From an uncultured Trueperaceae bacterium (GTDB lineage: Bacteria; Deinococcota; Deinococci; Deinococcales; Trueperaceae): a DNA stretch of 64,000 nucleotides. The position numbers were made by a program, and so were the translations under genes. Of this stretch, positions 362 through 64,000 are shown piece by piece. Within the stretch, counting starts at the first letter, position 1. The number at the start of each line of letters is the position of its first letter. The notes beneath the pieces were generated by a model. It did no database searches, was not told where the DNA came from, and saw nothing but the letters and a program-made list of their open reading frames with translations. The stretch spans positions 480,001 to 544,000 of the forward strand of contig CAWCXJ010000007.1 in NCBI GenBank assembly GCA_963799485.1. The letters are read 5' to 3'.

Positions 362-1372
362 GCGGTTTAGGTCAAGTATAAGCTACCCTCCCCGTTTCAA
401 GTTTACCAAGCACAGCTCGAGCTATCGCTTCGAGGTCATATGCCTCACCGTCCGCGAGTCTTCTCTTTTTGAAGTAACTCCCAAGAACCTTATCCAAGTC
501 ATCGGTTCGGCCTACAGGTAACTTCATGGGTTGTCCTATAAACTCACCTGTTTCAAAACGGCGGCGCAACTCTTGTATGACTAAAGGCACATCGTTTTGA
601 GGCAGTTCGGTGTTTTGATGCAGAAGGGTGTGCAGCAAAAGTTCGTCGGTATCAGACGGCGTTTCTGCTATTTGATGTTTTGATGCAGCAGGTTTTGAAC
701 CGTTGTCCTCATCGTTTTTTAAGCGGTAGCCGACGGGCTGACCCCGGCCCGGTAGCTTCAATACAGCTACAGTGTCGCCTAAACGCCCGAGCAGTTCCTT
801 AAGGGCATCCGCGGCTGCACGTTGCTGGATTTTGCCCTCACGTATGGCAACCTCGAGTAGTTCTCTGCGTTCTATTACGGTGCCGCGTCTCGTCTCGAGC
901 ACACTCTGCATGACCCTCACCGCTCGTTCGGTTTTTGTCTCGCTGTAGGATTCGGGCAACTCGGTTTCTTCGATTCGCACCGCATCGGCATTGAAATTCA
1001 GCTCTATTCCGAAGGGTTCCGGTAGCGCGGCAAAGCTCGACTTACTGACATCCCAACGCAAAACGTTGCGTCCCTGTACATCCTTTGCTGGGACGCGGGT
1101 TAACAAATGCACCGTGCGACTTTGTGCGGGTTTGGCGATGCTACCCATAACGCCACGTGCCCCTGCTTTCTCACCGCTCATCGGTTTGGGCAAATGGTCA
1201 ATCAGGATAACGGCAGCGCCTGTTTCGGTAGCAAGGCGGCGCAAGTACCAAAACGGCCCCTGTACAGCGGTAAGCTTTACCGGGTCGGTAGCGGGAAAAG
1301 CTGCCATAAACGAATCAATAACAACTAAGTACACCCAACCTAAATAAGTAGGTTGAAGGCGAATACTAAGGA

Positions 1373-1900
1373 ATGACAAAGCGAGGACGAAGGTATATCG
1401 CATTAAGTGAGGCAGAGAACGAGAAGTTAAGAGCGTTAGAGCAGAACGCGCATATAAATGCCAAGGTGCGTCTGCGTGCCCAGATTTTGAGACTATCAAA
1501 TCAGGGCATGAGCCTGGGGCAGCTTTCAGAGCATGTAGCCAAGAACTACGAAACCTTGAGAAGAACCTTTGACCGTTGGGAAAGAGCAGGTTACGCAGGT
1601 CTAGCCGACCACTACGAGACACACGGACAGAAACCCGTAATTACCGATGACATCAAGACGTTCATGGAAACGAAGCTAACAGAACCAAGAACCTGGACGT
1701 GTACCCAGCTCTCCGAGACCGTCGGCGAGCGCTACGGTGTCAAGGTGGGAGCCGAGGGTATCCGCAAACGACTCAAAGAAATGGGCTACAGCTGGAAAAA
1801 GGGACGCTTTACGCCTGCCAAGCGTCCTGGTGAGGACGACCTCAAGCACCATAGAGCAGCCTTGGACACGTTGAAAAAGGGGCGCTGGAGCAAAGGTTGA
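1373..1900 (+). CDS. IS630 transposase N-terminal HTH part (orfA)
   Basis: HTH/winged-HTH pattern, WTCxxL and GYSWKK motifs; ends at an AAAAAGGGG slippery site. Confidence 0.88.
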   Translation: MTKRGRRYIALSEAENEKLRALEQNAHINAKVRLRAQILRLSNQGMSLGQLSEHVAKNYETLRRTFDRWERAGYAGLADHYETHGQKPVITDDIKTFMETKLTEPRTWTCTQLSETVGERYGVKVGAEGIRKRLKEMGYSWKKGRFTPAKRPGEDDLKHHRAALDTLKKGRWSKG

Positions 1901-2400
1901 GACTGCTTTATCTCGATCAGGTCGGTTTTAGTCTGGCGCTCAAGCCGATCAAGACCTGGACGCCTAAAGGTTCAGGAATTCAGTTCGAGATTCCTTCCAG
2001 GCAAGGTTCAGCCGGAAGGCTCAATCTTATAGGTGCATTGGACGTTGCTGCCAACAAACTCGTTTACCGCGACTTGGAGGGTGGCTGTGATGCTCGTAAG
2101 GTCGAGGCGTTTCTCGACAGGCTGGCCGAACGAGCCGATCCCGAAGGTCTCACTGTCGTCGTGCTTGATAATGCTCGCTTTCACAAAGCTAAAAACATCA
2201 AGGCTAAAGAACACAGCTGGCAACAACAAGGCTTGTTTCTTCGTTACCTACCCCCTTACTCGCCCCAGTTAAATCCTATCGAAACACTTTGGCGTCTCCT
2301 CAAAGGCTTTCTCCTGCCTAGACGCTTATACGCTTCCCTCAATCATCTCAAAGAGGCTGTCTTCGCCGCCCTTACACTCCTAAATGCTGTCATCCTTTAG
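1897..2400 (+). CDS. IS630 transposase DDE domain (orfB, probably joined by frameshift)
   Basis: YLDQ, VVLDNARFH, LPPYSPQLNPIE motifs. Confidence 0.92.
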   Translation: MRLLYLDQVGFSLALKPIKTWTPKGSGIQFEIPSRQGSAGRLNLIGALDVAANKLVYRDLEGGCDARKVEAFLDRLAERADPEGLTVVVLDNARFHKAKNIKAKEHSWQQQGLFLRYLPPYSPQLNPIETLWRLLKGFLLPRRLYASLNHLKEAVFAALTLLNAVIL

Positions 2401-2804
2401 TTTCAGGTTGGAGGTACTTAGGTTGGCTCCGGTTGTGCGAGCGAGGTCGCCTAACTGGTTTAGTTCGTTTACGTCCATCCCGAAGGTGTCAGGATCGGGC
2501 TCGAGCACGATAATCTTACTCATATCGCCATCAGGGTAAGCGGCTTGGTGCTTATCAAGCCAAAAACGTATACTGCGCCCGTTTCCAGGGGCGTCATAGT
2601 CTACAAAGATGGTTTTACCAGGGTTGACGTGTTTGCCTAAGAATTCTCCACCATTGGGGCGGCTTGCTTGCCAAGCTAGGGCGGTTAGCGTGGCTGTTTT
2701 GCCATGCCCTGGTAGGGAGGCAACGAGGTTGAGGTAGCCTTTAAGGATTAACTCTTCTACATACCAGTCAAGCGGCTCGAGTTGGCGCGTGAGGTCTACT
2801 TGGA

Positions 2805-3903
2805 TTAAAGGCATGGTTTGCCCCCTAGCGTGGGAACGGCTCGCCCAATGTTGGGTCTGGCATCTGTTTTCGTCTTGGTCGAGAACCCGCTACCTGAAAA
2901 CATCAAATCGGGCTTTTGCTGTGAGCGACGTAAATCTTTTGGTGCAGTAGCTGATGCGCTAAAAGACTTGACTGCGTTAAAAGGGCGGGCACCTTCGAGG
3001 CTTTGGTTAAGCTGCTGTAAAAGCGCACCACGGCCCCCACGCCCTGCCAGATCGCACGCATCCATAGGCCACGGGTCAAGGGTGTAAGCTTTGCCAGCCC
3101 CTGCCCCTGCCCCTGCGCCTGTGCCGCCCACTTGTCACGCGCTTCTCGGCCTACTTCGTCGTCATCGGCGTAAACGTAGACGGTACGGCCTTTGAGCGCG
3201 TCAAGGTGTAATGATCCGCTCGTACCTGCTACACCCATGACCCCTAGATCGAGTCTTGCTAAGGAACATGCCATCGCGTTTAACTCCCCTTCAATCACAA
3301 GCACTTCGTTATGGTTCAAAAAGTCCGGCGAACACCATGCGGGGCTGCCGTGGCCTTTTAGTCCGGTGTAGCGGTCAAGCTTCGTTTTCGGGTGTGCTTT
3401 TCGGCGTTTGATGTTGAGGACGGTTCCGTTTGGGCCAAACACAGGGAAGAGTGCATCGTCCCCTTCAGCGCAACAGCCGAACTTCTTCAAGTCTGGCAAG
3501 GTAAAACCGCGCCCCTTCATCGAGAGGGGAACGCAGCGTAACCGGGCAGCTTGGCGGTAGTGGCGCTCGAGCACCTCCGGCGCAACTGGCTTAAAGATAG
3601 GGGCAGGCTTGGCAGCTTTGATAGCTAGGCGGGGCAGCGTAGCGCCTACCGCACCGCCCGCCCGACGCTCGAGGTCTCTAACCGCTTCAGCGGTGTCGAA
3701 GTCGTAAACCGCCTTGAGCCAGTCCAAGGCGTCGCCGTAAGCCCCACACGCAAAACATAAAAACTGTCTTGGTAGATATGGCAGCTTGGATTTCGGTCGT
3801 CGTGAACCGGGCACAGCACCTTACCGTTGCGCCCGATGTCGTGCGTTTCGCTTACCAGTTCGGTGAAGGGTATGGCAGCTTTGAGCGCTGCAATATCCGC
3901 CAC
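2805..3903 (-). pseudogene. DNA primase (CHC2 zinc finger plus Toprim) with two frameshifts
   Basis: CPVHDDRNPS and CFACG lie in different frames (slip near 3757); VIEGE and YADDD Toprim motifs; second slip at the CCCTGC repeat near 3100-3120. Confidence 0.82.
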
Positions 3904-3904
3904 C

Positions 3905-4123
3905 TCAAAACTCTTTTCCGATGTTGTCTTGAATCCACTGCTCGAGCGCTGCGGTAGGAATACGGATCGTGTTGCCAATTTTGAGGCAGGGTAAGACCCC
4001 GGCATTGGCTAAGCCGTAGGTGCGGTTGATGCCCAAGTTCAATATCTTGGCGGCTTGGCGCACGGTGAGGAGGACGGGTTGGTTGACTTTCTCGGATGTA
4101 GTAGGAACCTCTTTATGATCCAT
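3905..4123 (-). CDS. Excisionase-like helix-turn-helix protein
   Basis: LLTVRQAAKILNLG...LPCLKIGNTIRIP, typical HTH_17/xis pattern. Confidence 0.85.
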   Translation of the reverse strand: MDHKEVPTTSEKVNQPVLLTVRQAAKILNLGINRTYGLANAGVLPCLKIGNTIRIPTAALEQWIQDNIGKEF

Positions 4124-4159
4124 GCGAAAAGTGTCCCGTGCGTCTCGGTAAGTCCTGAT

Positions 4160-4206
4160 TTGACACGCTTAACTACGTCCTGTAGGCTATAAATATGACC
4201 TGTCAA
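4160..4206. promoter_or_regulatory. Divergent control region; sigma70-like promoter for the HTH gene
   Basis: TTGACA-17 nt-TAGGCT on +; a second TTGACA on the - strand at 4201-4206. Confidence 0.6.
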
Positions 4207-4222
4207 AATTCAGTTTTCAAAC

Positions 4223-4873
4223 ATGACTAAGACTAAACGTCCCTATCCTTGGCCTCATCCCGATGAAGTGATCAAGCGGATAGCTAACGCTGAACGTCGA
4301 GGGGTCAAGATGCGGTGGCACGTTATCTATCTGATATGCCGCGTTGACCCAAAAAGGAAGAGCCCGTTAAAAGATAAAGAAATTGCTGCCAAGGTAGGGT
4401 TCACGGTGCAGCATATTGAGAACGTTCGACGGGCTTTTCGTGAGAGAGGCCCAGATGCAATGGAGATGGGGTTTTCATTTGCGCGTCCGAAGGCTGGACG
4501 AAAAGCAATCTTTGGTCAAGATGACCTCGAGCGATTAGCGGCGTTTTTGCAAAAGCTTGAAAAGCCCCGGTGGGAAGACGTTCAGACTTTTTGCAAAGAT
4601 GTACTAAAAATGGAGAAGCCGGTCAGTGACACTACGGCACGGCGGCGGTTTGAGGACTACCTCGACGGAAAGTTTCAGCTACCTCAAGTTGTAGATGTGC
4701 CCGCCGCGCCGAAGAAACAAAATCTGTCAGAGAAGCTAGCCGTAACAAAAGGAGCTAACAAACGCTCACAGCCCAAGAGCGAAACAATTAGGCAGAAGCT
4801 AGAACCGGCAACGTCACCTTCGCTCCCGAAGGACTTAGGTATGTTCGAGTCGTTATTCGATGAGCAAACCTAA
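4223..4873 (+). CDS. HTH DNA-binding protein resembling the IS630 transposase N-terminal region, no DDE domain
   Basis: KEIAAKVGFTVQHIENVRRAFRERG, GRKAIF and PVSDTTARR align by eye with orfA at 1373. Confidence 0.65.
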   Translation: MTKTKRPYPWPHPDEVIKRIANAERRGVKMRWHVIYLICRVDPKRKSPLKDKEIAAKVGFTVQHIENVRRAFRERGPDAMEMGFSFARPKAGRKAIFGQDDLERLAAFLQKLEKPRWEDVQTFCKDVLKMEKPVSDTTARRRFEDYLDGKFQLPQVVDVPAAPKKQNLSEKLAVTKGANKRSQPKSETIRQKLEPATSPSLPKDLGMFESLFDEQT

Positions 4874-4968
4874 CTGCTATCACGGTAGACGGTCGGTTTT
4901 GAGCTAAATACGCCAGGTACCCCCGTGTGCATGAAGCAACAGGTGATAACTTCATTGCGCGGTTCAGC

Positions 4969-5180
4969 TTAGATAAACAGTTCCGTACCAACCCCAAACC
5001 GCTCAGCTAACTTCTTGGCTAGATTCAAGCTGATCGCGTGTTCCCCTTCAAAACCTTCTTCTGCTGGCTGGTAATATCCTCTTTATCAGTTGGTACCGAC
5101 CCCATGCCGTCCTATAAGGTGCGCGAGCATTTGGCAGGGCGGCGCGTCAAGGTTTTTAAGCTCGGGTTGGCCCGTTTCCC
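4969..5180 (-). pseudogene. Remnant of a HigA-type HTH antitoxin
   Basis: Minus-strand fragments DAPPCQMLAHLIGRHG and HAISLNLAKKLAERFGVGTELFI*; no intact ORF. Confidence 0.6.
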
Positions 5181-5346
5181 GCACAACCGTGTGCGCTTAG
5201 GCCCTATTTGCTGTACCGGACGCTGGACTCTACATATTCGTTACTCTATACGCCCATTACAAAGCGCTGTCATCTTCGTTTGGCTTATCCGGGTTATGTA
5301 TCGCGCTTTTGTGGGTCGCGTGTTCTCCGCTGGGTACGCTGAGCAC

Positions 5347-6693
5347 ATGCGCCCCCCCTCCCTAACAGCAATTTTTACGACCTGGTGGCCTCTGGCCGCG
5401 AGCTGGCTTTTTATGGGGGTCGAGCAACCCTTGGTCGGTGCGCTGATTGCTAGGCTCGCCGATCCGACGGTTCAGCTCGCAGCCTTGGGCGGCGTCGTTT
5501 TTCCGCTTTCGTGGCTTATCGAAGCGCCCATTATGATGCTGCTCGCTGCCTCGACCGCGCTTTCTAAAACCAAAGGTTCATACAGGTTTATCTACCGCTT
5601 CATGATGCTTTCAGGTCTAGCTTTAACGCTGCTACACGCGCTTTTAGCGTTTACCCCGCTCTACGACCTGCTGATCGTCCGGCTTTTACAACCCCCTGCC
5701 GTGGTCGTGCAACCAGCCCGCTTGGGCCTCATGATCATGCTGCCTTTTACCTGGTGTATCGCCTACCGCCGTTTTCATCAGGGTGTGCTAATTCGTAGTG
5801 GGCGGTCGCTAACGGTGAGTATCGGAACGGTGGTGCGGCTGCTAGCTATCGTGCTGGGGTGCAGCGTAGGGCTCTTGCTGGACGCACCGGGCATCGTTGT
5901 CGGTACGTTGGGAATCGTAACCGGGGTTTTAGCTGAGGCATTATTTATTGGGGTACGCGTCCGACCTATTGTTCGTCACGGGTTGCCGGACAAGGTGGAG
6001 AGTGAAGCGGAGCCCCTCGGCTGGTCGATGTTTTTGCGGTTTTATACGCCGCTGGCGCTGACGAGTTTGCTGCTGCTACTCGTGCAACCGCTCGGCAGCG
6101 CGGCGCTCAGCCGGATGCCGCTGGCGCTCACCTCACTTGCCGCGTGGCCGGTGCTGGCGTCCTTTATATTTCTCTTCCGGGGGGTGGGGATGGCCTATAA
6201 CGAGGTGGTAGTGGCGCAGCTCGAGACGCCGGGTGCGTGGCGGAGTCTGCGCCGCTTTGCGCTGCTCGTCTCAGCCTTGATAAGTGCCCTTTTGCTCCTG
6301 GTCGCGCTTACACCCCTCGCTCACGGCTATTTTGGTACGGTGCTCGGGCTCGAGCCTGAACTGGCTTCGCTGGCGAGCAACGGTCTTTTACTGGCGTTTG
6401 CGTGGCCCGCGCTGACGATCTTTCAGAGTTACTATCAGGGCATTTTGGTGCATAGTGGCGAAACGCAGCGCGTAACTCAGTCGGTTTTGGTCTCGCTCGC
6501 GGTCAGTGTGCTGCTGCTCGGGGGTGGGGCGCTCCTCGGCACGTTGCCGGGGCTTTACGTCGTAACGATAGCCTTTGTCGTCGGGAGCGCCGTGCAGGTA
6601 TTCTGGCTGGCGTACTCGAGCCAAGCGGTGCTCAGGGGCTTGCGGGCACTCGAGGCACCTTCGGGTGTTGGGCCCGTCGCTGCAACAGATTAG
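5347..6693 (+). CDS. MATE/MOP-superfamily multi-pass membrane exporter
   Basis: About 12 hydrophobic segments with an internal two-fold repeat (WWPLA / YTPLA); start chosen 6 nt after TACGCT. Confidence 0.75.
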   Translation: MRPPSLTAIFTTWWPLAASWLFMGVEQPLVGALIARLADPTVQLAALGGVVFPLSWLIEAPIMMLLAASTALSKTKGSYRFIYRFMMLSGLALTLLHALLAFTPLYDLLIVRLLQPPAVVVQPARLGLMIMLPFTWCIAYRRFHQGVLIRSGRSLTVSIGTVVRLLAIVLGCSVGLLLDAPGIVVGTLGIVTGVLAEALFIGVRVRPIVRHGLPDKVESEAEPLGWSMFLRFYTPLALTSLLLLLVQPLGSAALSRMPLALTSLAAWPVLASFIFLFRGVGMAYNEVVVAQLETPGAWRSLRRFALLVSALISALLLLVALTPLAHGYFGTVLGLEPELASLASNGLLLAFAWPALTIFQSYYQGILVHSGETQRVTQSVLVSLAVSVLLLGGGALLGTLPGLYVVTIAFVVGSAVQVFWLAYSSQAVLRGLRALEAPSGVGPVAATD

Positions 6694-6793
6694 GTAAGGC
6701 TGGCCTCTTCTGGTTCATTTCGGCTTGACTGCTGAAGGTCTATCGTAACTTAGAACGGCAAGATGAACGAATCAACCTTTGAGGTTTCCCACA

Positions 6794-6877
6794 CGCCCTA
6801 TCTACATCCAACTCAAGAACGGCGGCAGCTTGACCAACGGTAACAGTGACGCCGGGCGAGAGGAACTTATGGCTCTC
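6794..6877 (+). pseudogene. Degenerate copy of the 5' end of the ATP-grasp gene
   Basis: RPIYIQLKNGGSLTNGNSDAGREELMAL versus RPVYIQTKNDGSFTNGNSYAAWEGFTAL encoded from 7511. Confidence 0.8.
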
Positions 6878-6928
6878 GACACGCTATAGTATAAAAACCA
6901 TGCGGGACTCTTTGGAGAAAGGGGGAAT

Positions 6929-7111
6929 ATGTCTGCCACTCGTCCATTAAAAAGTACTCCCCTCGTGAGTCAAGAGGAGCGCGAGAAGCTTCGCCGCAAC
7001 AGCGTGCGAATCAACCGGGTGTTTGATACCCTTAACGCTTACCCCGGCGGCTTCCATGCCGAGTTTGAGCGCCGCGCCCGCCAACAGGGTCTGTCAAAGC
7101 ACAACAAGTAA
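6929..7111 (+). CDS. Small hypothetical protein
   Basis: TATAGT -10 box, purine-rich RBS, downstream terminator. Confidence 0.65.
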   Translation: MSATRPLKSTPLVSQEEREKLRRNSVRINRVFDTLNAYPGGFHAEFERRARQQGLSKHNK

Positions 7112-7124
7112 CCTTCCAGCCTTT

Positions 7125-7152
7125 GAAGCCCGGCCCTCGCGTCGGGCTTTCT
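7125..7152 (+). terminator. Intrinsic terminator
   Basis: AAGCCCG...CGGGCTTT hairpin. Confidence 0.6.
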
Positions 7153-7507
7153 CATGCCGCGACGAAGCCTACACGTAGCGTATTAGCGCTGAGACGCGAC
7201 CCGCCAAATCCGCCGCCAACCAAAGGAGCGCACTCCGAGTACGCTGACGGTGAACCTGAAGAGCAGACCCTCGAGACCTATCCCGAAGTCAGCAACGACT
7301 AAAGCCGCGCCAGAGTAGGCGGGCTCAGATTGCCCGCAGGTTTATCAGTTTAATCAGAAATTTATGACCCAAGCTTCTGATTCATGGGGTTATGCCCAGT
7401 TTCTGATTAAAACTCTGACCTCTGACCATGCCAGACCCGCGCCCAGGTCGAACCGCTATTGACCACAGCTTAAAATGACTCCGAAAGCCGAGGAGGTAAG
7501 GTCACTG

Positions 7508-8245
7508 ATGCGCCCTGTTTACATCCAGACCAAGAACGACGGCAGCTTTACCAACGGCAACAGCTACGCCGCTTGGGAAGGTTTTACGGCGCTTGGTTAC
7601 GAGGTAAAGACGTTTCGAGCCGATGAGCTGACCCAGCTCGAGCTAGCACCCGACGCGCTCGTTCACGGTCACGTCGGTATCGTTTGGCAGGCTTTAGCAC
7701 AACTCGGCGCACGTGTACCCCAAGCGCTGGGTATTCCTACCGACCTCGAGCCCTTTTTGGGTCGTCGCCAGTGGCAAAGTACGTTGGGAGAGGTTCGGAA
7801 GCTTGCGGACGTGCCGGTGTTTATAAAACCGCTAGAAAACGGCAAAGCGTTTACGGGCCATATCGTTGCTGAGTTTCGTGACCTGATCCAAACCGCCAGC
7901 TTGCCCGACGACTTTCCAGTGCTTGTGCAGGAGGTGGTGCAGCTCGAGAGCGAGTGGCGCGTGTTTGTCTTACGGGGTGAAGTCTTAGGCGTCGGGTACT
8001 ACTACGGCGACCCGCTCCGTTTTCCCGACGGTGCAGTCGTCAAGGAAATGCTGCGGGCACATAAAGACCCGGTAGCAGCGTATGGGCTCGATGTGGGTGT
8101 CACCGCAGGGGGTCAAACGCTGCTGGTCGAGCTTAACGACGGCTACGCCCTTGGTTGCTACGGCTTACCGCCGACCAAGTATGCAAGGCTGCTCGAGGCC
8201 CGCTGGGACGAACTGATGAGCTGTAAAAAGGTAGCGTCAACCTGA
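7508..8245 (+). CDS. ATP-grasp protein, R2K clade (DUF4343-like)
   Basis: PVFIKP...KAFTG, SEWRVFV, AYGLDVGV, LLVELNDGYALGCYG; RBS GAGGAGG. Confidence 0.82.
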   Translation: MRPVYIQTKNDGSFTNGNSYAAWEGFTALGYEVKTFRADELTQLELAPDALVHGHVGIVWQALAQLGARVPQALGIPTDLEPFLGRRQWQSTLGEVRKLADVPVFIKPLENGKAFTGHIVAEFRDLIQTASLPDDFPVLVQEVVQLESEWRVFVLRGEVLGVGYYYGDPLRFPDGAVVKEMLRAHKDPVAAYGLDVGVTAGGQTLLVELNDGYALGCYGLPPTKYARLLEARWDELMSCKKVAST

Positions 8246-8304
8246 GAGGGCTATAACACGGTAACGGGGTATCCTAAACCTCATCCCGTCTAGGAGGTGC
8301 CCTT

Positions 8305-56343: not shown

Positions 56344-56345
56344 GA

Positions 56346-58871
56346 TCAGCCTACAGGCGTCAGGCCGCGGGCGCGGTCTCTAAGTTTGTGGAGCAGCGCG
56401 AGCGCCTCGAGCGGCGACAAACGGTTCAAGTCTTGGGTCAGGAGCGCCTCGACGACCTCTTGGGCCGAATCCTGACCGCGCGCCTCGAGCCCTGCCAAAA
56501 CCGAACGCGCCCGCTCCAACACGCCTGCCGGAACCCCGGCAAGTTGGGCGACCGCGAGCCCGTAAGCCTTCGACGCCGGTCCCGGCAACACCTGATGGTA
56601 AAAGGTCAGTCCGCCCGCCTCTTCTTTGGCGGCGACGTGAAAATTACGCACCGCGCCGAGTTTGCTCTCCAACGCCGTAAGTTCAAAGTAGTGGGTGGCA
56701 AAAAGGACATATGAACCCGTACACGCCTCGAGGTGTTCGGCTGCCGCCCATGCGAGGGCCAAACCGTCAAAGGTGCTCGTCCCACGCCCGATTTCGTCGA
56801 GCAGCACCAGGCTTTTCGGCGTTGCGTGCTGCAAAATCGTGGCGAGTTCGCTCATCTCGACCATAAAGGTGCTGCGCCCCCCGGCAATATCGTCCGACGC
56901 GCCGATACGGGTGTAGATGCGTTCAAACAGCGGCAACACCGCTCGTTCTGCCGGAACGAACGAACCGACCTGGGCAAGCAGCGCAATCAGCGCGGCCTGC
57001 CGTAAATACGTCGATTTACCCGACATGTTCGGCCCGGTCAGAATGATGAGGCGTTCGCTTTCCGAGAGTTGCAAGTCATTCGGGATAAACGGGTGAAACC
57101 GTTCGACGACCGGGTGACGGCCCCCTTCGATGCTCAGCACCCCATCCGAAAAGCTCGGGCGGCAGTAGCGGCCTTCGGCGGCGACTTCGGCAAGGGCGCT
57201 GTAGGTGTCCAACTCGGCTAGCGCTGCGCCGAGTTCGCGCACGGCGTCGGCAGCGGGGGCGAGACCGGCGCGGAGTTCACCGAAAACGGCGTATTCGCGG
57301 CCCCGCGCGGCGGTTTCGGCCCGTAAAATCTCACGCTCGCGTTCGCGCAGGTCGGGCCGGACGTAGCGCTGGCGGTCTTTAAGGGTTTGCACGGCGCGGT
57401 AGCTCTCCGGTACGGCGTCGTAGTAGGGGCGGGTAACTTCCAGGTAGTACCCGAACACGCCGTTAAAGCCGATTTTGAGGGTAGGAATGCCGGTGGCGGC
57501 GCGTTCACCGGCCTCGAGCGCGGCAATCCACGCTCGCCCCGCTTCGGCGGCGGCGCGGAGCGTGTCGAGTTCGCTGTCGAAGCCGCTCTGAATCAGGCCG
57601 CCTTCGGTCAGTTTGAGCGGCGGATTTTCCACGAGTGCGGCGCTGATGCGCTCGTAGGTGGCCCCCAACCCGTGCAACCGTTCGGCGAGGGCTTGGAGCG
57701 CGCCTTCGCTGCGTCCGGCAAGCAACGTTTTAAGTTCCGGAACGAGCGCCAGGCTGCGTGCCAGCGCGCAGAGGTCCCTAGCGTTGGCGCGGCCCGTGAC
57801 GAGTTTCGAGGCGAGGCGCTCCAAGTCGTGCAGTTTGTAGAGCGCTTTTCTGACCTCACGCCGTAAAACGGTGTCCCGCACAAACGCTTCTACGGCGTCT
57901 TGGCGGCGGCTAATCAGCGGTTCTTCCAGGAGCGGATGCCGCAACCACGCCCGCAAGAGCCTGCGTCCGGGCGCGGTGCGGGTCGTATCCAAAATGCTTA
58001 GCAAAGTGCGAGCTTCGCTGCTCGGGGTTGGCGTGTTGGCGGAGAAGACCTCGAGCGTCGCCAGAGCCGTTTCCCCGACCTGCATATACGCGCTCGGGTC
58101 GTACCGTAAAAAGCGCGTCACCTGCGCGAGTTGTCCGCGCTGCGTGGTCAGGGCGTAGGACAAAACCGCACCGGCAGCGCGCAAGAGGGCGTCGTCGGCT
58201 CCCGGCGGCACCGCGCCGAAGTGCCCGGAAAGCGTACTTTGCGCCTCGTCTTCACCGAAACGCCCGCGCGTGAGCATCACCGCAAAACGTTCGCTGCACG
58301 CTTCCCGGAAATCCTCCTGCGCGTACAACTCGGGGGCGAGCAGCAGCTCGGCGGGGCGGTAACGGCGCAGTTCGTCGAACAGGGCGCTTTTGCTGTACAA
58401 GAGCGTGCCGCGAAACTCTCCCGTCGTTACGTCTAAAAAGGTCAGGCCGTAGCCTTCGCCGGTCGCTACGGCAGCCAAATAGTTCGCGTCGGGCCGTAAA
58501 AGCTTTTCGTCCGTGACCGTACCGGGCGTGATGAGCTGCGTGACCTCACGTTTGACGAGGCCGTCGGCGGTTGCCGGGGTTTCGGTCTGATCGGCAACGG
58601 CCACGCAGATATTTTGCCGTAAAAGTTTTTCCAGGTAAGCGTCCGCGCTCCGCACCGGAATCCCGGCCATCGGGGTCGTAAAGTCTTTGCTCGTTTTATG
58701 CGTCAGGGTAATGCTGATGGCGCGGGCAAAGCGCTCGGCGTCTTCACCGAAAGTCTCGTAAAAATCGCCGACTTGAAACAGCAGCAGGTAATCCGGGTAG
58801 CGTTCGCGCAGCTCGGTGTACTGCACCAAAAGCGGTGGTAGCGGCCCCTGGCCCTCGCCTTTAAGCGTCAT
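56346..58871 (-). CDS. mutS: DNA mismatch repair protein MutS
   Basis: GDFYE, GPNMSGKST, DEIGRGT. Confidence 0.98.
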   Translation of the reverse strand: MTLKGEGQGPLPPLLVQYTELRERYPDYLLLFQVGDFYETFGEDAERFARAISITLTHKTSKDFTTPMAGIPVRSADAYLEKLLRQNICVAVADQTETPATADGLVKREVTQLITPGTVTDEKLLRPDANYLAAVATGEGYGLTFLDVTTGEFRGTLLYSKSALFDELRRYRPAELLLAPELYAQEDFREACSERFAVMLTRGRFGEDEAQSTLSGHFGAVPPGADDALLRAAGAVLSYALTTQRGQLAQVTRFLRYDPSAYMQVGETALATLEVFSANTPTPSSEARTLLSILDTTRTAPGRRLLRAWLRHPLLEEPLISRRQDAVEAFVRDTVLRREVRKALYKLHDLERLASKLVTGRANARDLCALARSLALVPELKTLLAGRSEGALQALAERLHGLGATYERISAALVENPPLKLTEGGLIQSGFDSELDTLRAAAEAGRAWIAALEAGERAATGIPTLKIGFNGVFGYYLEVTRPYYDAVPESYRAVQTLKDRQRYVRPDLREREREILRAETAARGREYAVFGELRAGLAPAADAVRELGAALAELDTYSALAEVAAEGRYCRPSFSDGVLSIEGGRHPVVERFHPFIPNDLQLSESERLIILTGPNMSGKSTYLRQAALIALLAQVGSFVPAERAVLPLFERIYTRIGASDDIAGGRSTFMVEMSELATILQHATPKSLVLLDEIGRGTSTFDGLALAWAAAEHLEACTGSYVLFATHYFELTALESKLGAVRNFHVAAKEEAGGLTFYHQVLPGPASKAYGLAVAQLAGVPAGVLERARSVLAGLEARGQDSAQEVVEALLTQDLNRLSPLEALALLHKLRDRARGLTPVG

Positions 58872-58921
58872 GGCTCTATGATACCGCCCTGTCAGCTCGA
58901 GCTCTACTTGCGTAGGACGCT

Positions 58922-59779
58922 TTAGAGTGCTTCAGCTAGTGAGGCGCCTTTACGGACTTCGACCTCGACCTCGAGCCCTGCCCCGCCCCCACCGCGCCTG
59001 AGCCCCCGTACCGGCGGCAGGTCGTCGTAATCACGTCCGTAGCCGATCTTGACGTGTGCTTCAGTGACCGGGCAGCCGTTGGTGGGGTCGAAGCCCACCC
59101 AGCCGTTGCCCGGCAAAAATGCCTCGACCCAGGCGTGCGACGCTTCTGTGCCGATAAGCGTTTCGTCGCCGCGTGGGTTCGAGTGGATATAACCCGAGAC
59201 GTAACGCGCCGGAATCCCCGAGGCGCGGCACAAGGCGAGCATGGCGTGGGCGAAGTCCTGACACACGCCTGAACTGTGCTGCGCGAACTCGGTCAGCGGC
59301 GTATTGACGTCGGTGGCAGAGGGCGAGTAGCGAAAACGCCCGTGTAGATATGTGTTCATCGCAGCTAGATAACTTACGAGCCCGGAACCGGAGGTAAGCG
59401 GCAGCGCTCCGAACGCCCGGTGCCAGTTTTCGTTTAGGGGCACCCGCAAGGTCGGCGCGAGGTACTCGAAAAAGCGGTGCCGCAAGTCGGGCAGGACTTC
59501 AGCTGAGACCTCGAGCGGTGTCGGAACCGGATAGGTCACAACCGCCGAAGTCGCTTCGATACAGAGTTCGTTGTGGTCGTTCGGCAGGTGAAAGTGATAG
59601 ATCAGGTTGCCGAACTGGTCGCGGCGCTCTCTGACCGTAACGTTGGGTGAAATCTGCAAATTAAACGCCAAGAGCGTCTGCCGGTAATCGTCGGCGGGGC
59701 GCAGCCACACTTCGTTAAACGAGTCCCAGGCGGGCCGCGCGTAGCGGTAGGTGGTGGTGTGCCGGACGTTCAGATACAT
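58922..59779 (-). CDS. Transglutaminase-like protein
   Basis: HTTTYRY, GVCQDFAH, SHAWVE, FDPTN, GRDY. Confidence 0.92.
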   Translation of the reverse strand: MYLNVRHTTTYRYARPAWDSFNEVWLRPADDYRQTLLAFNLQISPNVTVRERRDQFGNLIYHFHLPNDHNELCIEATSAVVTYPVPTPLEVSAEVLPDLRHRFFEYLAPTLRVPLNENWHRAFGALPLTSGSGLVSYLAAMNTYLHGRFRYSPSATDVNTPLTEFAQHSSGVCQDFAHAMLALCRASGIPARYVSGYIHSNPRGDETLIGTEASHAWVEAFLPGNGWVGFDPTNGCPVTEAHVKIGYGRDYDDLPPVRGLRRGGGGAGLEVEVEVRKGASLAEAL

Positions 59780-60052
59780 ACCTTGAGGGAGTATAGCAAG
59801 GGTTTTCGGCAAACCTCTGCAATCTGTACAGGCGTCCCGCAAACCTTTTGCGCCTTGTAAATCCGACCGTGATACGGGTTGTTTATCCTATTGGCGATTA
59901 CCTACATCCGCTACCGCTACCTGAAAAGCCCGCGCGGACAAACTATCTTGCAAGTTATTGTCGGGGACAGCAGCGTTTCTGGGATCGGTTTTTTACTCGG
60001 ACAACTCGGCGCGGGCGCGTAAAATGACGCTTGAGGCGCGTTAAACTGCCCT

Positions 60053-60853
60053 ATGGAACTCTACTTGGGCACGGGCGGCTACAGTAACGACGACTGGAAC
60101 GGTATCTTTTACCCTGAAGACGCCAAATCGTCGCAGTATTTAGGGCTTTACGCCGAACACTTCAACGCCGTTGAACTCAACAGCAGCTTCTACAACATCC
60201 CCGGCGTCAAGGCGTTTGCGGGCATGGTTAAAAAGAGTTCGGGTCGGGTGCGTTTCGCCGTAAAACTGCCGAGTACGATGACGCACAGCCGTGACGCCGA
60301 CGCTGAACTTTACCAGCGGCTTTTTGAGTCGGTCGAGCCGCTCCGTGAGGCTGGGATGCTGGGGCCGTTTCTGGCGCAGTTTCCGTATTCGTTTCACCGG
60401 ACACCGGAAAACCGGGTGTATCTCAAATCCTTGACCGACCGTTTTACCGACGCAGGGGAGGCGCTCGCTGTCGAGTTTCGCACTGCCGACTGGCACCTCC
60501 CAGAAGTTTACGACGCGCTCCGTCAGAGCGGCCTCATCGCTGTAAGCGTAGACTATCCGCCGCTGCCGAACATGCCCAAGCCGGTGCTGCTCGAGACCTC
60601 GAGCACCGCCTACCTCCGCCTGCACGGGCGCAACGAAAAGACCTGGTACGGCGGCAAAAGTGCGGCTGAGCGGCACGACTATCTGTACAGCAAAGACGAG
60701 CTTCAGCCGTGGGTCAGCGCAGTCGCTGAGAGTGGACTCGAGCAGGTCTATATCATGTTCTTAAACACCACCAAAGGTCACGCGCTTAAAAACCTCAAGA
60801 TGATAGCTGAGCTTTTTGATGACGTGGGGCTCGAGGCTCCTATCTCGTTATAG
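60053..60853 (+). CDS. DUF72 family protein
   Basis: VELNSSFY, QFPYSF, YLRLHGRN, YLYS. Confidence 0.92.
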   Translation: MELYLGTGGYSNDDWNGIFYPEDAKSSQYLGLYAEHFNAVELNSSFYNIPGVKAFAGMVKKSSGRVRFAVKLPSTMTHSRDADAELYQRLFESVEPLREAGMLGPFLAQFPYSFHRTPENRVYLKSLTDRFTDAGEALAVEFRTADWHLPEVYDALRQSGLIAVSVDYPPLPNMPKPVLLETSSTAYLRLHGRNEKTWYGGKSAAERHDYLYSKDELQPWVSAVAESGLEQVYIMFLNTTKGHALKNLKMIAELFDDVGLEAPISL

Positions 60854-60946
60854 ATTTTTTTACCGACCGACTGCGGGCTCACGCTGCCGGTCTAACCCGA
60901 CCGCGACCTCGAGCAAAATCTCCCGGGTGATGGCTCATTAGAGACT

Positions 60947-61491
60947 GATAGCCGCACGTTCAAGGTTGTAGCGAACTAAGGTTGTAGCGGACTAAGAACA
61001 GCTGTAGACACATCAGGTGCAGGTGTTCTGACTTGGAAAAGGCTAGGGTTTTTCGAACAAAGCGAGCCAGACGTTGGCGAATGGGGTTGTCAAAACGTTC
61101 AACGTGGGCGGTTAGACCCGAGTCCTTGCCTACAGCCTGGTGTTGTTTGTCAAAGAGCACAGCCTGATAAGCTTCCCGGAAGTCGCTGAACACGGTACCT
61201 TGTTTGTAGTAGGAATGCTGCTCCACAGCTTGCGGCAGGTAGCGACGCCGCGTCCACCTGTGACAAGCACAGCGACCTGTTTGGCTTGTTTGCAAACCGC
61301 TAACCAGACCCACCGTTTGGTGTGTTTGCGGTGCACGAATGACCAAAGTGCCCCAAACGAAGTGGCAGGGTACATTTCATCAAGTTCGAGTTGAACCGCT
61401 TCAGGCTTGTCGGGCGTGATAAGTGTGGTACTGAGCGGCGGAGTCGTCTCGGCTTTTTTTAAGCCACTTCGCTTTTCGGTGTACAACTATC
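60947..61491 (-). mobile_element. Internally deleted, frameshifted IS1-family remnant
   Basis: ELDE..WSFV...WVWLA, SDF..AY, HVERF...RQRLAR.VRKTL.FSKS; weak IR GATAGCCGCAC / GATAGTTGTAC. Confidence 0.78.
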
Positions 61492-61492
61492 T

Positions 61493-61888
61493 ATGACTGC
61501 AACGCCAAATCCACCCGAGGACCTGCTCGCGGCTGCTAAAACTGCCCACCGAAATGCCTACGCGCCCTACTCCGGCTTTCACGTCGGTGCGGCGCTACGG
61601 GCCGAGAGCGGCAAGGTCTACGCGGGCGCAAACATCGAAAACGCGTCCTACGGCCTCGGGCGCTGCGCGGAACAGTCGGCGATTCAGGCCATGGCGTCGG
61701 CGGGAGAGCGGCAGTTTAGTGAAATCGTCGTCTACACCACCGCCGCCGAACCTGCGAGTCCTTGCGGGGCGTGCCGCTTGCCGAACCGGGTCAGGACACG
61801 CGCCGGGTCGCGGTCAGCGGCACGCTGCAGAACCCGGCGGACTTGCTCGGCAAGGTCGTCGATACTGTTATGCAGGAACTCGCGCTGA
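61493..61888 (+). pseudogene. cdd: Cytidine deaminase whose C-terminus is replaced after PCGACR
   Basis: AYAPYS.F.VGAA, ENASY, CAE, PCGACR, then unrelated sequence from about 61778. Confidence 0.8.
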
Positions 61889-62204
61889 ACGTCTCCCCGA
61901 AGACCAGGCGGAGCTTGACGCCGTAATCGCGCAAACCCCGGCCCTGAGTACCGGCACGAACAAAAGCGGCAAGTCGTAAACCGTGTTGTGCGCTCTGAAG
62001 TCTTTGACCTCCAGCAGCTACGCACGATGACTCGGATCGTTCCTGTTTCGTTTTTCATCTCTTACATGATAAAAGCCTGCCTCCCAGGGGGGTAGCCTTG
62101 CATTAGGCGCTGTCAAGCGTTAAACTTTCTTAGTAGTCAAGTGGTCTAAAACGACTTTAGGACCACAGGCGCAGTAAAAGTATATGTAGAGCGGTAAAAC
62201 ACTT

Positions 62205-62281
62205 CGGGGTGTAGCGCAGCCTGGTAGCGCACTTGACTGGGGGTCAAGTGGTCGCATGTTCAAATCATGTCACCCCGACCA
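62205..62281 (+). tRNA. tRNA-Pro(GGG)
   Basis: Full cloverleaf: acceptor CGGGGTG/CACCCCG, anticodon arm CTTGA-CTGGGGG-TCAAG, TTCAAAT loop, CCA. Confidence 0.96.
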
Positions 62282-62303
62282 CAAATAAAAGCGTTCTAGA
62301 CGC

Positions 62304-62338
62304 AAAAAAAGTAGAGGTGCCATTGCCTCTACTTTTTT
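62304..62338 (+). terminator. Bidirectional terminator after tRNA-Pro
   Basis: AAAAAAGTAGAGG...CCTCTACTTTTTT. Confidence 0.85.
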
Positions 62339-62385
62339 CATTGCCGCGTCTGACCACAATACTGACCACAACTAGGTGCAAAAGG

Positions 62386-64000
62386 CTAGTTCGGCACGCT
62401 CAACTGCTGAGGCGAACCCGACCTAAGTGCTCCTTGCAACAAATTGGCAAGACCGAGCGCTGCTTGGCTGCGCTGCTCGTCGTAGAGGTGTTGATAAACG
62501 TTTCGGGTAAAGCCGGGGTTGGTATGCCCGAGCCGCTCACTGACCACCCCGATGTCAATGCCGTTTTTTATTAATAACCTCGAGTGCTAGTAGAAAAGGG
62601 GTAAAAGATGAGAGAAGATAGGTCATGCGAACCGTTGATCTTCTCTCAAAGCATAATGTAACAGACCTTTTCACAATCGTATATGTCCTGATAGACGACT
62701 ATCTACAAGCCTCAGAACGCTTAGGACGCTTCAAGTTGCCTAAAAAGCGCCAACAAAAATCCAGCTACGCCGAGTTGCTCACCATTGTTCTGGTCGGCGA
62801 GATACTTCAGCAGAAAAATCAAGGCTTGTGGTACTTGCTGGTGCAGCGTGAATACGGCGCTTTGTTCCCCGACCTGCCTCATATCACACGTTTTTACCGA
62901 GTGAGCCGTAACTTCGAACGCATCTATGCGGACTTAGCTATGCTGATTGCTCAGCATGATGGGGTGTAGCTGGTCGACTCCAAGCCGCTGCCTATCTGCA
63001 AGGGTGTTCGCTACCCAAGACCAAGAAGGATGACCGAAGCTACCTCTGGACGCGGTGGGGCAACCAAACGCTTCTACGGCTTTAAACTTCACGCCGTTTG
63101 CACGGGTCAGGGTGCTAGCTGTCGTTTTGCCATCGTGCCAGCCAATGAAAGTGATGTCACCGTGGGCAAGTGTCTCTTGGACGCTTCTGGCGATGACCTA
63201 AACAGCATCATCGGCGACAAAGGCTATCAGGGTTTAGGCATCTACACCCCACCCAAGCAAAACGCCAAAGAACCCGGCTGCTGGTGTGACTTCTTCGCTC
63301 GTGCCAGAAAGTCTGTCGAGGCTGTTTTCTCCTCACTCGCAAGATGTCGCAATATTGCCTTGCAACAGCTCAACTCTTTTTGGAGCATTCGTGCCAGTGT
63401 CTGCCGCAAAGTCGCGGCTCACAACCTCATCCTGTTTCTGTTCGACTAGCACCCGAGGTTAATAGGCTAGCGTGCGTGTGACGTAAACCGTGGATGCCTA
63501 TGCTCGTCACGGCAATACCTTTGACAAGGCGCTCGAACACACGTGAAAGGTTGCGCGGGTTGAGATACGTGCCGAGTTGCGACGGGAATACGAGATCAAA
63601 GTCAGACCATGCCTGACCAAAATACTCTTGCTCTTCTTTTAGACGGTCACGGTGGTTTAGCAAAACTTGAATGTCGTCTTCTTGAACGCGAATGCTGCGG
63701 CGCGACGCTTTTGTTTTTGGTTCACCAGCATGAACCGTTCCGTGAACATCGACAGCATTGCGGCGCACGTAGATACACTGTTTAACGACTTCAACGTCTT
63801 GCCAGCGTAGCGCAACTAGCTCGCCGCGCCTCATACCGGTAACGACCGCAGTATAGAAAAGACCATAAAGGCGGTGAGGTTGCGCGTGGGCCAAAAAGCA
63901 CGCTACCTCGTCGGCAGTCCAGTAGGCCACCTCAGGTTTAATTTGCTTCGGAACTTTGACGGACTCAAGCACATTACGACCAACCAGTTCCCACGCTACG
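62386..64000 (-). pseudogene. Tyrosine integrase next to tRNA-Pro, interrupted by IS982; 5' end outside the window
   Basis: TGMRRGE, HGLRHTHASLL, then after the IS: IKNGIDIGVVSERLGH...YQH; frame restored when the IS is removed. Confidence 0.92.
62577..63459 (+). mobile_element. IS982-family element; transposase has an in-frame TAG at 62967-62969
   Basis: IRs ACCTCGAGTGCTAGT / ACCTCGGGTGCTAGT; TAATA target duplication; VDSKPLP, YGFKLH, GDKGY, RKSVEAVFS. Confidence 0.9.

Follow-up and report, generated by a model that had tools for sequence, protein, structure and literature searches.

CTCGAG as a highly iterated, HIP1-like palindrome in a Trueperaceae genome and in most of the phylum Deinococcota

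The hexamer CTCGAG is strongly overabundant in a 64,000-nucleotide stretch of DNA from an uncultured Trueperaceae bacterium (phylum Deinococcota; GenBank assembly GCA_963799485.1, contig CAWCXJ010000007.1, positions 480,001 to 544,000 of the forward strand). We refer to this whole stretch as “the window” and to the source genome as G000, in which the window is G000:C7:480001-544000. A first-pass annotation of the window proposed that CTCGAG is a highly iterated palindrome comparable to HIP1 of cyanobacteria, and that a host process creates or preserves it as a DNA word. Here, we describe the abundance of CTCGAG in the genome and in its relatives, the enzymes that might recognize it, and possible explanations. 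We put the probability that CTCGAG is a true highly iterated palindrome, i.e., a HIP1-like word that is kept at the DNA level, at about 0.9. The proposal that a host process acts on the DNA word is supported by the excess of the word in all reading frames and in non-coding DNA, by its specificity for the hexamer, and by its retention between species.

The window contains 132 exact CTCGAG sites, the first at 416 and the last at 62579-62584, with a mean spacing of 475 bp and a largest gap of 2,140 bp. In 100 dinucleotide-preserving shuffles of the window, the count was 21.4 ± 4.5 with a maximum of 36, and 0 of 100 shuffles reached 132. The annotation's rough figures of ~130 sites observed and ~20 expected were thus close to the mark. 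By our home-made open reading frame (ORF) calls, 89 of the sites are read as CTC|GAG (Leu-Glu), 11 as xxC-TCG-AGx, and 3 as xCT-CGA-Gxx, such that all three frames are represented and the earlier claim of multi-frame occurrence is borne out. The remaining 29 sites lie outside called genes and include all five that had been singled out as intergenic (7270, 10135, 16692, 58896, and 60908). The window encodes 154 Leu-Glu dipeptides, 89 of which are spelled CTCGAG.

The same pattern is seen across the whole of G000 (3.655 Mb in 15 contigs; 59% GC). With 7,252 sites (1.98 per kb), CTCGAG is the commonest of all 4,096 hexamers. Markov models of rising order predict 1,163 (order 0), 1,229, 1,549, 2,224, and 4,904 (maximal order) sites; against the maximal-order model, CTCGAG has a z-score of +61.5 and ranks first of 4,096. 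Our gene calls (2,947 genes from a self-trained ORF scorer, which together span 80% of the genome) are crude, meaning that DNA classed as non-coding holds some missed genes. The density of sites is 2.03 per kb in coding DNA and 1.78 per kb in the remainder. Spacers of <150 bp, which are unlikely to hide genes at such length, contain 143 sites, ~7-fold more than the ~19 expected. Site density is flat, at 1.8–2.2 per kb, over classes of genes that differ in GC content at third codon positions or in codon score.

A codon-level origin of the excess would require that CTC and GAG are merely favored codons and that Leu-Glu is a common dipeptide. Consistent with this, 4,811 of the 5,964 genic sites (81%) are read as CTC|GAG, and Leu-Glu is mildly overrepresented in G000 (8,950 dipeptides vs 7,264 expected). 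However, shuffling synonymous codons within each gene (30 replicates) yields only 1,697 genic sites. The ratio of observed to shuffled sites, 3.51, is the highest of all 4,096 hexamers. Moreover, the excess is found in each frame, with 4,811 sites vs 1,444 in the shuffles for CTC|GAG, 868 vs 220 (3.9-fold) for xxC-TCG-AGx, and 285 vs 33.5 (8.5-fold) for xCT-CGA-Gxx; short intergenic spacers, in turn, are ~7-fold enriched. Codon choice is also context-specific: CTC accounts for 70% of Leu codons before GAG but for 29% before any other codon, and GAG accounts for 96% of Glu codons after CTC, as compared to 29–80% after nine other tabulated preceding codons. As a result, 54% of Leu-Glu dipeptides (4,811 of 8,950) are spelled CTC-GAG vs 15% (1,385) expected. 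Lastly, the enrichment holds in relatives with a GC content of 36–48%. We therefore reject the codon-usage explanation, to which we give essentially no credence. The annotation had named the loss of the excess after control for Leu-Glu codon pairs and shorter words as the outcome that would overturn its proposal; the opposite is observed, with CTCGAG ranking first against both Markov and codon-shuffled nulls and remaining 3.3- to 8.5-fold enriched in all three frames.

The effect is all-or-none: it needs the complete hexamer, and five letters give no partial effect. CGA encodes 0.047 of Arg residues overall and 0.45 (285 of 633) in the context ..CT-CGA-G.., but only 0.03–0.075 when a single flank fits. 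Similarly, TCG encodes 0.29 of Ser residues overall and 0.68 in the context ..C-TCG-AG.., but 0.08–0.30 when a single flank fits. From the odds of codons in context, the scaled advantage of a site over its one-step neighbor is ~3.4 for GAG vs GAA, 2.8 for CGA, and 1.7 for TCG; we estimate the scaled strength of the force to be ~3, with a range of 1.7–3.4. The bases that flank CTCGAG show only a mild bias (50% G at −1 and 51% C at +6) together with a 3-base periodicity that reflects the frame preference.

Comparison with two genomes of the same genus shows that the conserved unit is the hexamer. We aligned genes of G000 to 400 kb from each of the two genomes, giving 215 and 222 codon alignments with ~84% amino-acid identity. 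Where Leu-Glu is conserved, CTCGAG in G000 is kept as CTCGAG in 233 of 286 (0.81) and 237 of 286 (0.83) cases. For other codon pairs, retention has a median of 0.48 and 0.44, and CTCGAG ranks second of 279 and first of 352, respectively. Non-sites at conserved Leu-Glu positions also tend to stay non-sites (the probability of a site given a non-site is 0.18 and 0.21), and most of them are distant TTR-GAR spellings. When context is matched, CTC is retained at 0.83–0.84 before GAG vs 0.56–0.71 in other contexts, and GAG is retained at 0.90 after CTC vs 0.60–0.66 in other contexts. Of the sites read as xxC-TCG-AGx, 33 of 34 and 34 of 40 are kept, as compared to a fraction of 0.41–0.45 for generic hexamers; the few sites read as xCT-CGA-Gxx turn over fast, with 1 of 4 and 0 of 10 retained. 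Because flanks are not conserved and sites lie at aligned codons of orthologues, CTCGAG sites have spread by point substitution and not within a longer inserted repeat.

The force that favors CTCGAG weakens near an existing site, giving a more regular spacing than expected by chance. A Leu-Glu dipeptide is more often spelled as a site the farther away the nearest other site lies, with a probability that climbs from 0.24 at 6–15 bp through 0.44, 0.50 (30–60 bp), 0.52, 0.53, 0.55, and 0.59 to 0.61 at 400–700 bp. We permuted site status 300 times among the 8,950 Leu-Glu positions. The coefficient of variation of spacing is 0.935, as compared to 0.989 ± 0.009 in permuted genomes (z −5.7). Gaps <30 bp are too few (232 vs 340; z −9.2), as are gaps >1.6 kb (234 vs 291; z −5.7), and the largest CTCGAG-free gap in the 3.66-Mb genome is 4,667 bp. 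Both the saturation and the regular spacing count against a mutation bias that is context-free, and they fit a process that reaches over some hundreds of bases. Whether such a saturating “signal word” process, by selection or directed repair, maintains CTCGAG is a matter on which we see the chances as evenly balanced.

Recently acquired DNA is poor in sites. In G000, representatives of insertion sequence (IS)-sized repeat families with at least three copies, as defined by self-BLAST, contain 6 sites in 10.1 kb (0.6 per kb), with 2.8 expected from composition and a host mean of 2.0 per kb. In a relative, G141 (taken as Meiothermus silvanus DSM 9946), plasmids carry 1.39 sites per kb vs 2.58 per kb on the chromosome. 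The idea that site density could date acquired DNA thus gains support, with a series running from 0.6 per kb in IS families through 1.4 per kb in plasmids to 2.0–2.6 per kb in chromosomes. The site-making force has yet to act on newly arrived IS elements.

The CTCGAG trait is ancient and common to most of the phylum Deinococcota. We sampled 7–60 kb of DNA from each of 30 relatives, whose kinship makes the tallies descriptive rather than a test, and we counted sites in 121 whole genomes of the phylum, with genome sizes rounded. The observed-to-expected ratio (O/E) of sites is at least 2.5 in 25 of the 30 sampled relatives, which range in GC content from 36 to 74%, and CTCGAG is the top hexamer in 9 of the 30. 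Relatives below 2.5 are G007, G009 (of which only 6.7 kb was sampled), and three genomes of one family, f2 (O/E 0.07–0.45). Among the 121 whole genomes, all 53 that lie outside f2 have 0.63–3.4 sites per kb, above the ceiling of 0.34 per kb that composition allows at any GC content; the genus that we take to be Thermus has the weakest excess (0.63–1.1 per kb). In f2, which is probably Deinococcaceae, 67 of 68 genomes fall below 0.34 per kb (lowest 0.01), and one reaches 0.46.

Avoidance in f2 (e.g., L139, L143, L147, L163, L231, and L232) is specific to the hexamer. In five samples, TCGA and CTCGA are not depleted, and CTCGAG is found 1, 3, 1, 1, and 7 times vs 10.7, 8.5, 5.3, 7.5, and 18.2 times expected at maximal order. 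An XhoI nuclease was considered as the cause and rejected, since 0 of 81 f2 genomes carry one; the same search detects XhoI-family nucleases in two other genomes, G020 and G002.

The opposite extreme is family f5 (GC 45–48%; samples L142, L146, L150, and L156), with 5.3–6.3 sites per kb and an O/E of 24–32. Here, 64–77% of Leu-Glu dipeptides are spelled CTCGAG, and the dipeptide itself is in ~2-fold excess (163 vs 66, 96 vs 44, and 60 vs 33). Genome-wide counts in f5 are 1,540–2,544 for GCTCGAGC and 0–1 for CGAGCTCG. The use of this pair as a reversed-word control was dropped because GAGCTC is itself avoided in some lineages, and it was replaced by sampled DNA and absolute density. GAGCTC is absent from all f5 samples (0 in 80 kb). 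A further peculiarity is seen in G021 (family f4, genus g17; samples L141, L164, and L230), in which the tetramer TCGA is strongly avoided (57 vs 174 expected in 60 kb) and 56 of the 57 remaining TCGA tetramers sit inside CTCGAG.

Some Deinococcota methylate CTCGAG. Blow et al. 2016 (PMC4752239, S3/S4) list active N6-methyladenine (m6A) CTCGAG methylases without a cognate nuclease in three members of the phylum. The fraction of CTCGAG sites detected as methylated is given as 94.6% for Marinithermus hydrothermalis, 94.1% for Meiothermus chliarophilus, and 99.5% for M. ruber, and the enzymes are named M.Mhy14884I, M.Mch9957IV, and M.Mru1279II, respectively. We located the corresponding enzymes in G024 (taken as Marinithermus) and G038 (taken as M. 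ruber); they combine Eco57I catalytic and TaqI_C domains. An orthologue of M.Mru1279II is present in G002, G029, G038, G056, G054, and G125. Across the phylum, this M. ruber-type methylase occurs in 9 of 121 genomes, and site density is the same with or without it; it is found in 3 of 13 genomes of its own genus and in 0 of 3 genomes of the densest related genus. G141 has 9,077 CTCGAG sites (2.4 per kb). The methylated motifs listed for M. silvanus DSM 9946 by Blow et al. (PMC4752239) are TTAA, TCGWCGA, AAGAYC, GGCAGC, and CCCAG, and do not include CTCGAG; single-molecule real-time (SMRT) sequencing is insensitive to 5-methylcytosine, so C5 modification of CTCGAG could still occur in M. silvanus. 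A TaqI_C protein was found in 0 of 4 genomes of G141's genus.

Nucleases of the XhoI family (PF04555) are rare, occurring in 2 of 31 genomes. In G020, the nuclease is intact and paired with a beta-class methylase. In G002, which belongs to the window's genus, it is broken by stops and lies beside an intact Eco57I+TaqI_C methylase. PF04555 was not found in G000, where CTCGAG is enriched; the target of an XhoI/PaeR7I restriction–modification (R-M) system would instead be expected to be avoided. The Eco57I+TaqI_C methylase was likewise not found in G000, which weighs against methylation as the driver. The link to methylation drawn in the first-pass annotation therefore holds in part: m6A CTCGAG methylases are listed in three relatives, but the enzyme type is missing from the G000 search results, is confined to 9 of 121 genomes, and one relative with 2.4 sites per kb has no listed CTCGAG methylation. 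Methylation may follow the abundance of CTCGAG rather than cause it.

The enzymes of G000 itself include Type I, Type III, and MmeI-like systems, two prophage C5 methylases, and, on contig C6, one gamma-class N6-adenine methylase (Eco57I catalytic domain plus M_Eco57I_C) with no adjacent nuclease. The Type I, Type III, and MmeI-like enzymes were rejected as candidates because these classes recognize bipartite or asymmetric sites and not a 6-bp palindrome. The C5 methylases were rejected as drivers because both lie within prophage-like modules and no more than 2 of 5 genus genomes were found to carry the family. The C6 methylase is the sole palindrome-capable candidate in G000 that lacks a partner nuclease. 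Its frame has an apparent in-frame TGA where the orthologue in G001 has Arg. This stop, at 1879-1881 of the locus, lies outside the public contigs that cover parts of the locus (1403-1663, 1489-1639, 1882-2086, and 2019-2200), and the best-matching public read sets contained at most 20% of sampled words. The search for an orphan CTCGAG methyltransferase that the annotation called for thus yields a solitary gamma-class gene, a candidate at best, whose frame has an apparent stop codon.

The C6-type methylase is inherited vertically, being present in 5 of 5 genus genomes (63–77% identity) and 12 of 18 family genomes, whereas none of the 12 genomes from the four other families was found to have it; several copies, including that of G005, carry stops. 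In other phyla, 63 of 80 loci with C6-type homologues (the 63 lie within L019-L095, the 80 being L016-L095) have a conserved, uncharacterized nuclease next to the methylase, as detected with a hidden Markov model scan. The nuclease is ~290 amino acids long, is PD-(D/E)XK-like, and is encoded immediately downstream of M_Eco57I_C-type methylases in many phyla (e.g., L037:4184-5038). It is distantly XhoI-like, with PF04555 as the best but sub-threshold match in 6 of 12 members (hhalign E-value 4e-5, 70% probability). The family is probably an undescribed family of restriction enzymes. None of the neighbors of C6-type homologues passed the Pfam threshold for the XhoI family among the 66 of 151 listed ORFs that were scanned. 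The DNA around the 63 complete R-M systems of the C6 family shows no avoidance of CTCGAG (170 sites vs 141), and hence CTCGAG specificity of the C6-type enzyme gains no support. Searches of solved structures with the C-terminal part of the C6 enzyme and with the nuclease profile gave nothing useful.

Repair enzymes that might read the word were also sought in G000, which is 99.99% complete. Vsr (PF03852) has 0 matches, and CTCGAG thus lacks the enzyme expected of a word shaped by very-short-patch (VSP) repair. Neither a Dam-type methylase nor a MutH-like or Vsr-like nicking enzyme was identified in G000. Several other palindromes are avoided in G000 relative to the maximal-order expectation: TTTAAA (22 vs 811), GGCGCC (210 vs 3,330), CGGCCG (284 vs 1,962), GGGCCC (244 vs 1,260), and CCGCGG (490 vs 2,350). 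Words that contain GGWCC, as well as GTTAAC, are also avoided. These avoidances suggest past or present restriction systems.

We tentatively propose that CTCGAG is the Deinococcota counterpart of HIP1: a phylum-level signal with a conserved, putative reader, in which methylases are secondary and one family has flipped to avoidance. The odds for this full proposal lie somewhat below even. A conserved host DNA-transaction system would read CTCGAG, and selection or biased repair would keep one site per few hundred bases, much as in the saturating model of HIP1 put forward by Elhai. CTCGAG methylases without a nuclease would then more likely be followers than drivers, as remnants of XhoI-type restriction systems. 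Such systems may have been acquired repeatedly, being useful against the CTCGAG-rich phages of the clade, and the nucleases may then have been lost as too costly for a host that carries thousands of sites. Followers fit better than drivers given at least three non-orthologous CTCGAG-associated methylases, their patchy spread, a decaying nuclease, and a word-rich genome with no listed methylation.

Several observations weigh against this reading. The excess over the maximal-order Markov expectation is only 1.48-fold. Near-miss spellings are drained according to their mutational closeness to the site, with CTC-GAA at 0.14, CTT-GAG at 0.25, and CTG-GAG at 0.34 of expectation; likewise, the probability of CTC for Leu is 0.095 when the next codon is GAA vs 0.24–0.39 before other A-ending codons. 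Simple equilibrium selection does not predict such draining; together with the enrichment of prophage-like and viral DNA, it speaks instead for directed conversion, or for a process still under way, that acts on all resident DNA. The reader protein is putative, and the term “signal word” is one that we infer from spacing and conservation. Finally, a function confined to the chromosome sits poorly with two prophage-like contigs of G000, C2 and C3, that carry 1.8–1.9 sites per kb, and with three viral contigs, related by a prophage methylase gene, that have an O/E of 6.5.

Methylation could instead be the primary driver, in a Dam-like manner or by a ratchet of the type modeled by Elhai. A solitary methylase would mark CTCGAG, and hemimethylated sites would guide mismatch repair or some other process that follows replication; a saturating density of sites would then be built up by selection for coverage or by repair that favors the methylated strand. 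Elhai's model predicts saturation on the scale of a few hundred bases, G000 has both mutS and mutL, m6A CTCGAG is listed in three of the four CTCGAG-rich Deinococcota with SMRT methylomes, and the solitary gamma-class methylase of Trueperaceae is vertically inherited, from an R-M lineage with a distantly XhoI-like nuclease. However, the documented enzyme is patchy and unrelated to density, G141 is rich in sites with no listed CTCGAG methylation, and the three f5 genomes have neither enzyme type at the thresholds used, save for one 26%-identical match in G026. The candidate genes of G000 and G005 carry stops, host DNA of the complete R-M relatives of the C6-type enzyme shows no avoidance of CTCGAG, and no MutH-like or Vsr-like nicking enzyme was identified in G000. 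We regard methylation as an unlikely primary driver, and a ratchet built on it as improbable to the same degree. A function-free, neighbor-dependent bias, in which a polymerase or repair preference of the lineage converts near-matches in long-resident DNA, would account for the scaling of sites with residence time, as seen in the enriched prophage-like contigs, the intermediate plasmids, and the three viral contigs, and for the particular depletion of near-miss spellings linked to CTCGAG by transitions. Such a bias, if context-free, predicts neither the shortage of long gaps nor a repulsion between sites that extends for hundreds of bases. An all-or-none, six-letter effect would need a sequence-reading enzyme rather than a generic bias, and no Vsr homologue was found in G000; we therefore consider it distinctly unlikely.

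CTCGAG might also be a word for DNA uptake or self-recognition, spread through competent Deinococcota by biased uptake and recombination. Uptake sequences, too, are evenly spaced, depleted in new DNA, shared across a clade, and retained between species, and a 2026 paper (PMC13756078) makes the case that HIP1 could act as one. However, a six-letter palindrome gives low specificity, the viral contigs are enriched too, and the word differs from known uptake words, which have 9–12 letters, are non-palindromic, and are specific to a family or genus; CTCGAG has six letters, is palindromic, and is phylum-wide. Family f2, probably Deinococcaceae, avoids the word, and the genus taken as Thermus has the weakest excess. 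The type genus of Deinococcaceae is naturally competent, and DNA uptake in Thermus is sequence-independent. In addition, the genus of G000 has a separate, genus-restricted, non-palindromic 10-mer that is more like an uptake “dialect.” We consider an uptake role for CTCGAG very unlikely.

This second iterated word, TTTTACGGCG, occurs in 277 and 263 copies on the two strands of G000 vs ~3 expected per strand. In the window, copies are found on the plus strand at 7582, 32165, 37305, and 49067, and on the minus strand at 13683, 16579, 19835, 37392, 57859, and 60256. Copies have no conserved flanks and no strand polarity, fall in several reading frames, and lie both within and outside genes. The excess around the word is graded, at 3.4-fold for TTACGG, 9.6-fold for TTTACGG, and 22-fold for TTTTACGG. 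It is restricted to the genus, with 51 (G005) and 23 (G001) copies per 400 kb and none in samples of other families. Its restriction to the genus makes TTTTACGGCG a closer match to an uptake-sequence dialect than CTCGAG is.

Within the window, sites are unevenly shared between mobile elements and resident DNA, in line with the site counts given for these elements in the annotation. An IS630-family element (1328..2418, plus strand; GC 0.51) has an HTH ORF at 1373-1900 (Pfam HTH_32/HTH_33) and a DDE_3 ORF at 1897-2400, and contains 0 sites. It is followed by island cargo (2419..11304) that includes Pfam matches to R2K ATP-grasp, RlaP, and an integrase fragment, along with unassigned ORFs; its 25 sites (2.8 per kb) equal or exceed the host level, and its description as rich in sites is accurate. 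An IS3-family element (11305..12600, plus strand; Pfam rve/HTH_21) with four copies in the genome by self-BLAST has one site, at 11520. An IS4/5-like element (20726..21695, minus strand; DDE_Tnp_1), with two genome copies and 0 sites, falls within the longest site-free gap of the window, 20267-22407. A copy of the most repeated IS-sized family, which has 10 segments genome-wide, lies at 62571..63475 and has one site, at 62579. Between these, the housekeeping core (12601..62570), with Pfam matches to tyrS, gnd, zwf, asnS/aspS, hisS, tal, recA, bamA, mutL, mutS, and others, carries 102 sites outside the IS4/5-like element, a density of 2.0–2.5 per kb. Both mutL (54664-56343; Pfam MutL_C/DNA_mis_repair) and mutS (56346-58871; Pfam MutS I-V) are on the minus strand; these are the mismatch-repair genes that a methyl-directed ratchet would require, and they are mentioned for context, any tie to CTCGAG being conjectural.

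Other features of G000 bear on its assembly and prophages. A 983-bp stretch (36051-37033) of recA (ORF 36002-37078) is duplicated at G000:C6:479454-480436 with at least 90% identity; the second copy could be a paralogue or contamination, given an assembly contamination estimate of 4.6%. Contig ends also carry large, near-identical duplications: 35 kb of C9 (1-35046) is shared with C15/C14, and the last part of C4 has 8,438 bp in common with the first part of C8. Redundancy or overlaps in the assembly are a likelier source of these duplications than biology. Prophage-like modules at G000:C2:19047-23006 (L008) and G000:C3:34389-38336 (L009) each have a ParB-like gene, a C5 methylase, and a small-terminase-like gene, and are near identical except in the variable region of the methylases, suggesting two phage methylases of differing specificity. 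Among viral relatives of the prophage methylase, the 77 contigs other than the three enriched ones have a CTCGAG O/E of 0.34; specific avoidance was rejected here, since palindromes are generally avoided in these contigs (median 0.58). Two records of metagenome-assembled genomes, L027 (Gammaproteobacteria) and L028 (Myxococcota), contain ~50%-identical homologues of the Trueperaceae methylase with no partner nuclease. With 21 CTCGAG sites over 6.3 kb in L027 and 13 over 4.9 kb in L028, a density typical of Deinococcota, they may be misbinned contigs.

HIP1 has gone unexplained for thirty years, partly because it was seen as peculiar to cyanobacteria. Now that a different phylum has a hyper-abundant palindrome of its own, independent of the first, the question can be approached by comparison. 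Deinococcota offer cultured, genetically tractable members (Thermus and Meiothermus), a range of densities from 0.6 to 6 sites per kb, and an avoiding sister family, while published methylomes cover one species in which the word is methylated (M. ruber) and one without listed CTCGAG methylation (M. silvanus). With these contrasts, the roles of methylation, repair bias, uptake, and chromosome structure can each be tested directly. If our proposal is correct, the on/off contrast presented by f2 within the phylum lets comparative genomics seek the reader, and the pressure involved is one that respells more than half of the Leu-Glu dipeptides in G000 and doubles the frequency of the dipeptide in f5. 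In practical terms, CTCGAG density can help to date acquired DNA and to flag misbinned contigs in these genomes, and its abundance explains the fine digestion of unmethylated Meiothermus-type DNA by XhoI. As a defense in Deinococcota, restriction at CTCGAG should have exceptional potency and carry exceptional danger.

Among known systems, the Dam/GATC and CcrM/GANTC systems share with CTCGAG a palindromic target and, in their case, a vertically inherited methylase without a partner nuclease. The saturating spacing of CTCGAG would be explained if the word had a distance-dependent function, such as the control of replication or methyl-directed repair. To our knowledge, GATC and GANTC are not grossly overrepresented in their hosts, and we know of no MutH-like or SeqA-like reader for CTCGAG; our search of G000 found none. 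VSP repair is said, in 1992 work credited to Bhagwat and McClelland and to Merkl et al., to shape the abundance of CCWGG and CTWGG in E. coli. The likeness is that a sequence-specific repair bias enriches a methylase target and drains its transition neighbors, and transition near-misses of CTCGAG are the most depleted. However, G000 has no Vsr homologue, the CTCGAG effect is far larger, and the documented mark on CTCGAG is m6A, a base whose deamination yields no mismatch. The DNA uptake sequences of Neisseriaceae and the uptake signal sequences of Pasteurellaceae are non-palindromic, family-specific words of 9–12 letters. CTCGAG resembles them in occurring at ~1 site per kb with even spacing, depletion in recent DNA, sharing across a clade, and tolerance in particular frames; we know of no uptake bias for CTCGAG.

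The methylases of Blow et al. 2016 (PMC4752239) act on the same word in the same phylum, and one has an orthologue in the window's genus (G002). The G000 candidate differs from them in its recognition domain (M_Eco57I_C) and in its apparent stop. The main-text passages searched in that paper address methylation and are silent on the abundance of CTCGAG. Full-text searches, with subscription journals outside their coverage, found no report of CTCGAG overabundance in Deinococcota. New here are the Trueperaceae case, the map of the phylum with its reversed family, the link and mismatch with published methylomes, and the signal of repulsion between sites.

HIP1 (GCGATCGC) of cyanobacteria is the closest parallel, and the comparison drawn by the first-pass annotation proves apt. 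By the features used to define such words in Elhai 2015 (PMC4390886) and Xu et al. 2018 (PMC5861425), both are hyper-abundant short palindromes that occur in coding and non-coding DNA and in multiple frames, have spread by substitution through a whole clade, are conserved between species beyond expectation, and reach ~1–3 sites per kb. Moreover, in both cases, methylases without a nuclease recognize the word in some members of the clade, and some word-rich members have no such methylase. The spacing of CTCGAG in G000 was analyzed at short range; for HIP1, a periodic distribution on a 10–90 kb scale is described (Xu et al. 2018, PMC5861425). The two also differ. The cyanobacterial enzymes recognize GATC or CGATCG, whereas CTCGAG is the target of an m6A gamma-class methylase; the fold-excess of HIP1 is 55–228, as compared to 6 for CTCGAG and up to 32 in f5, the lower values reflecting the higher baseline of a hexamer; and one family of Deinococcota specifically avoids its word. 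With six letters rather than eight, and in another phylum, CTCGAG is not HIP1 proper, but its analogue.

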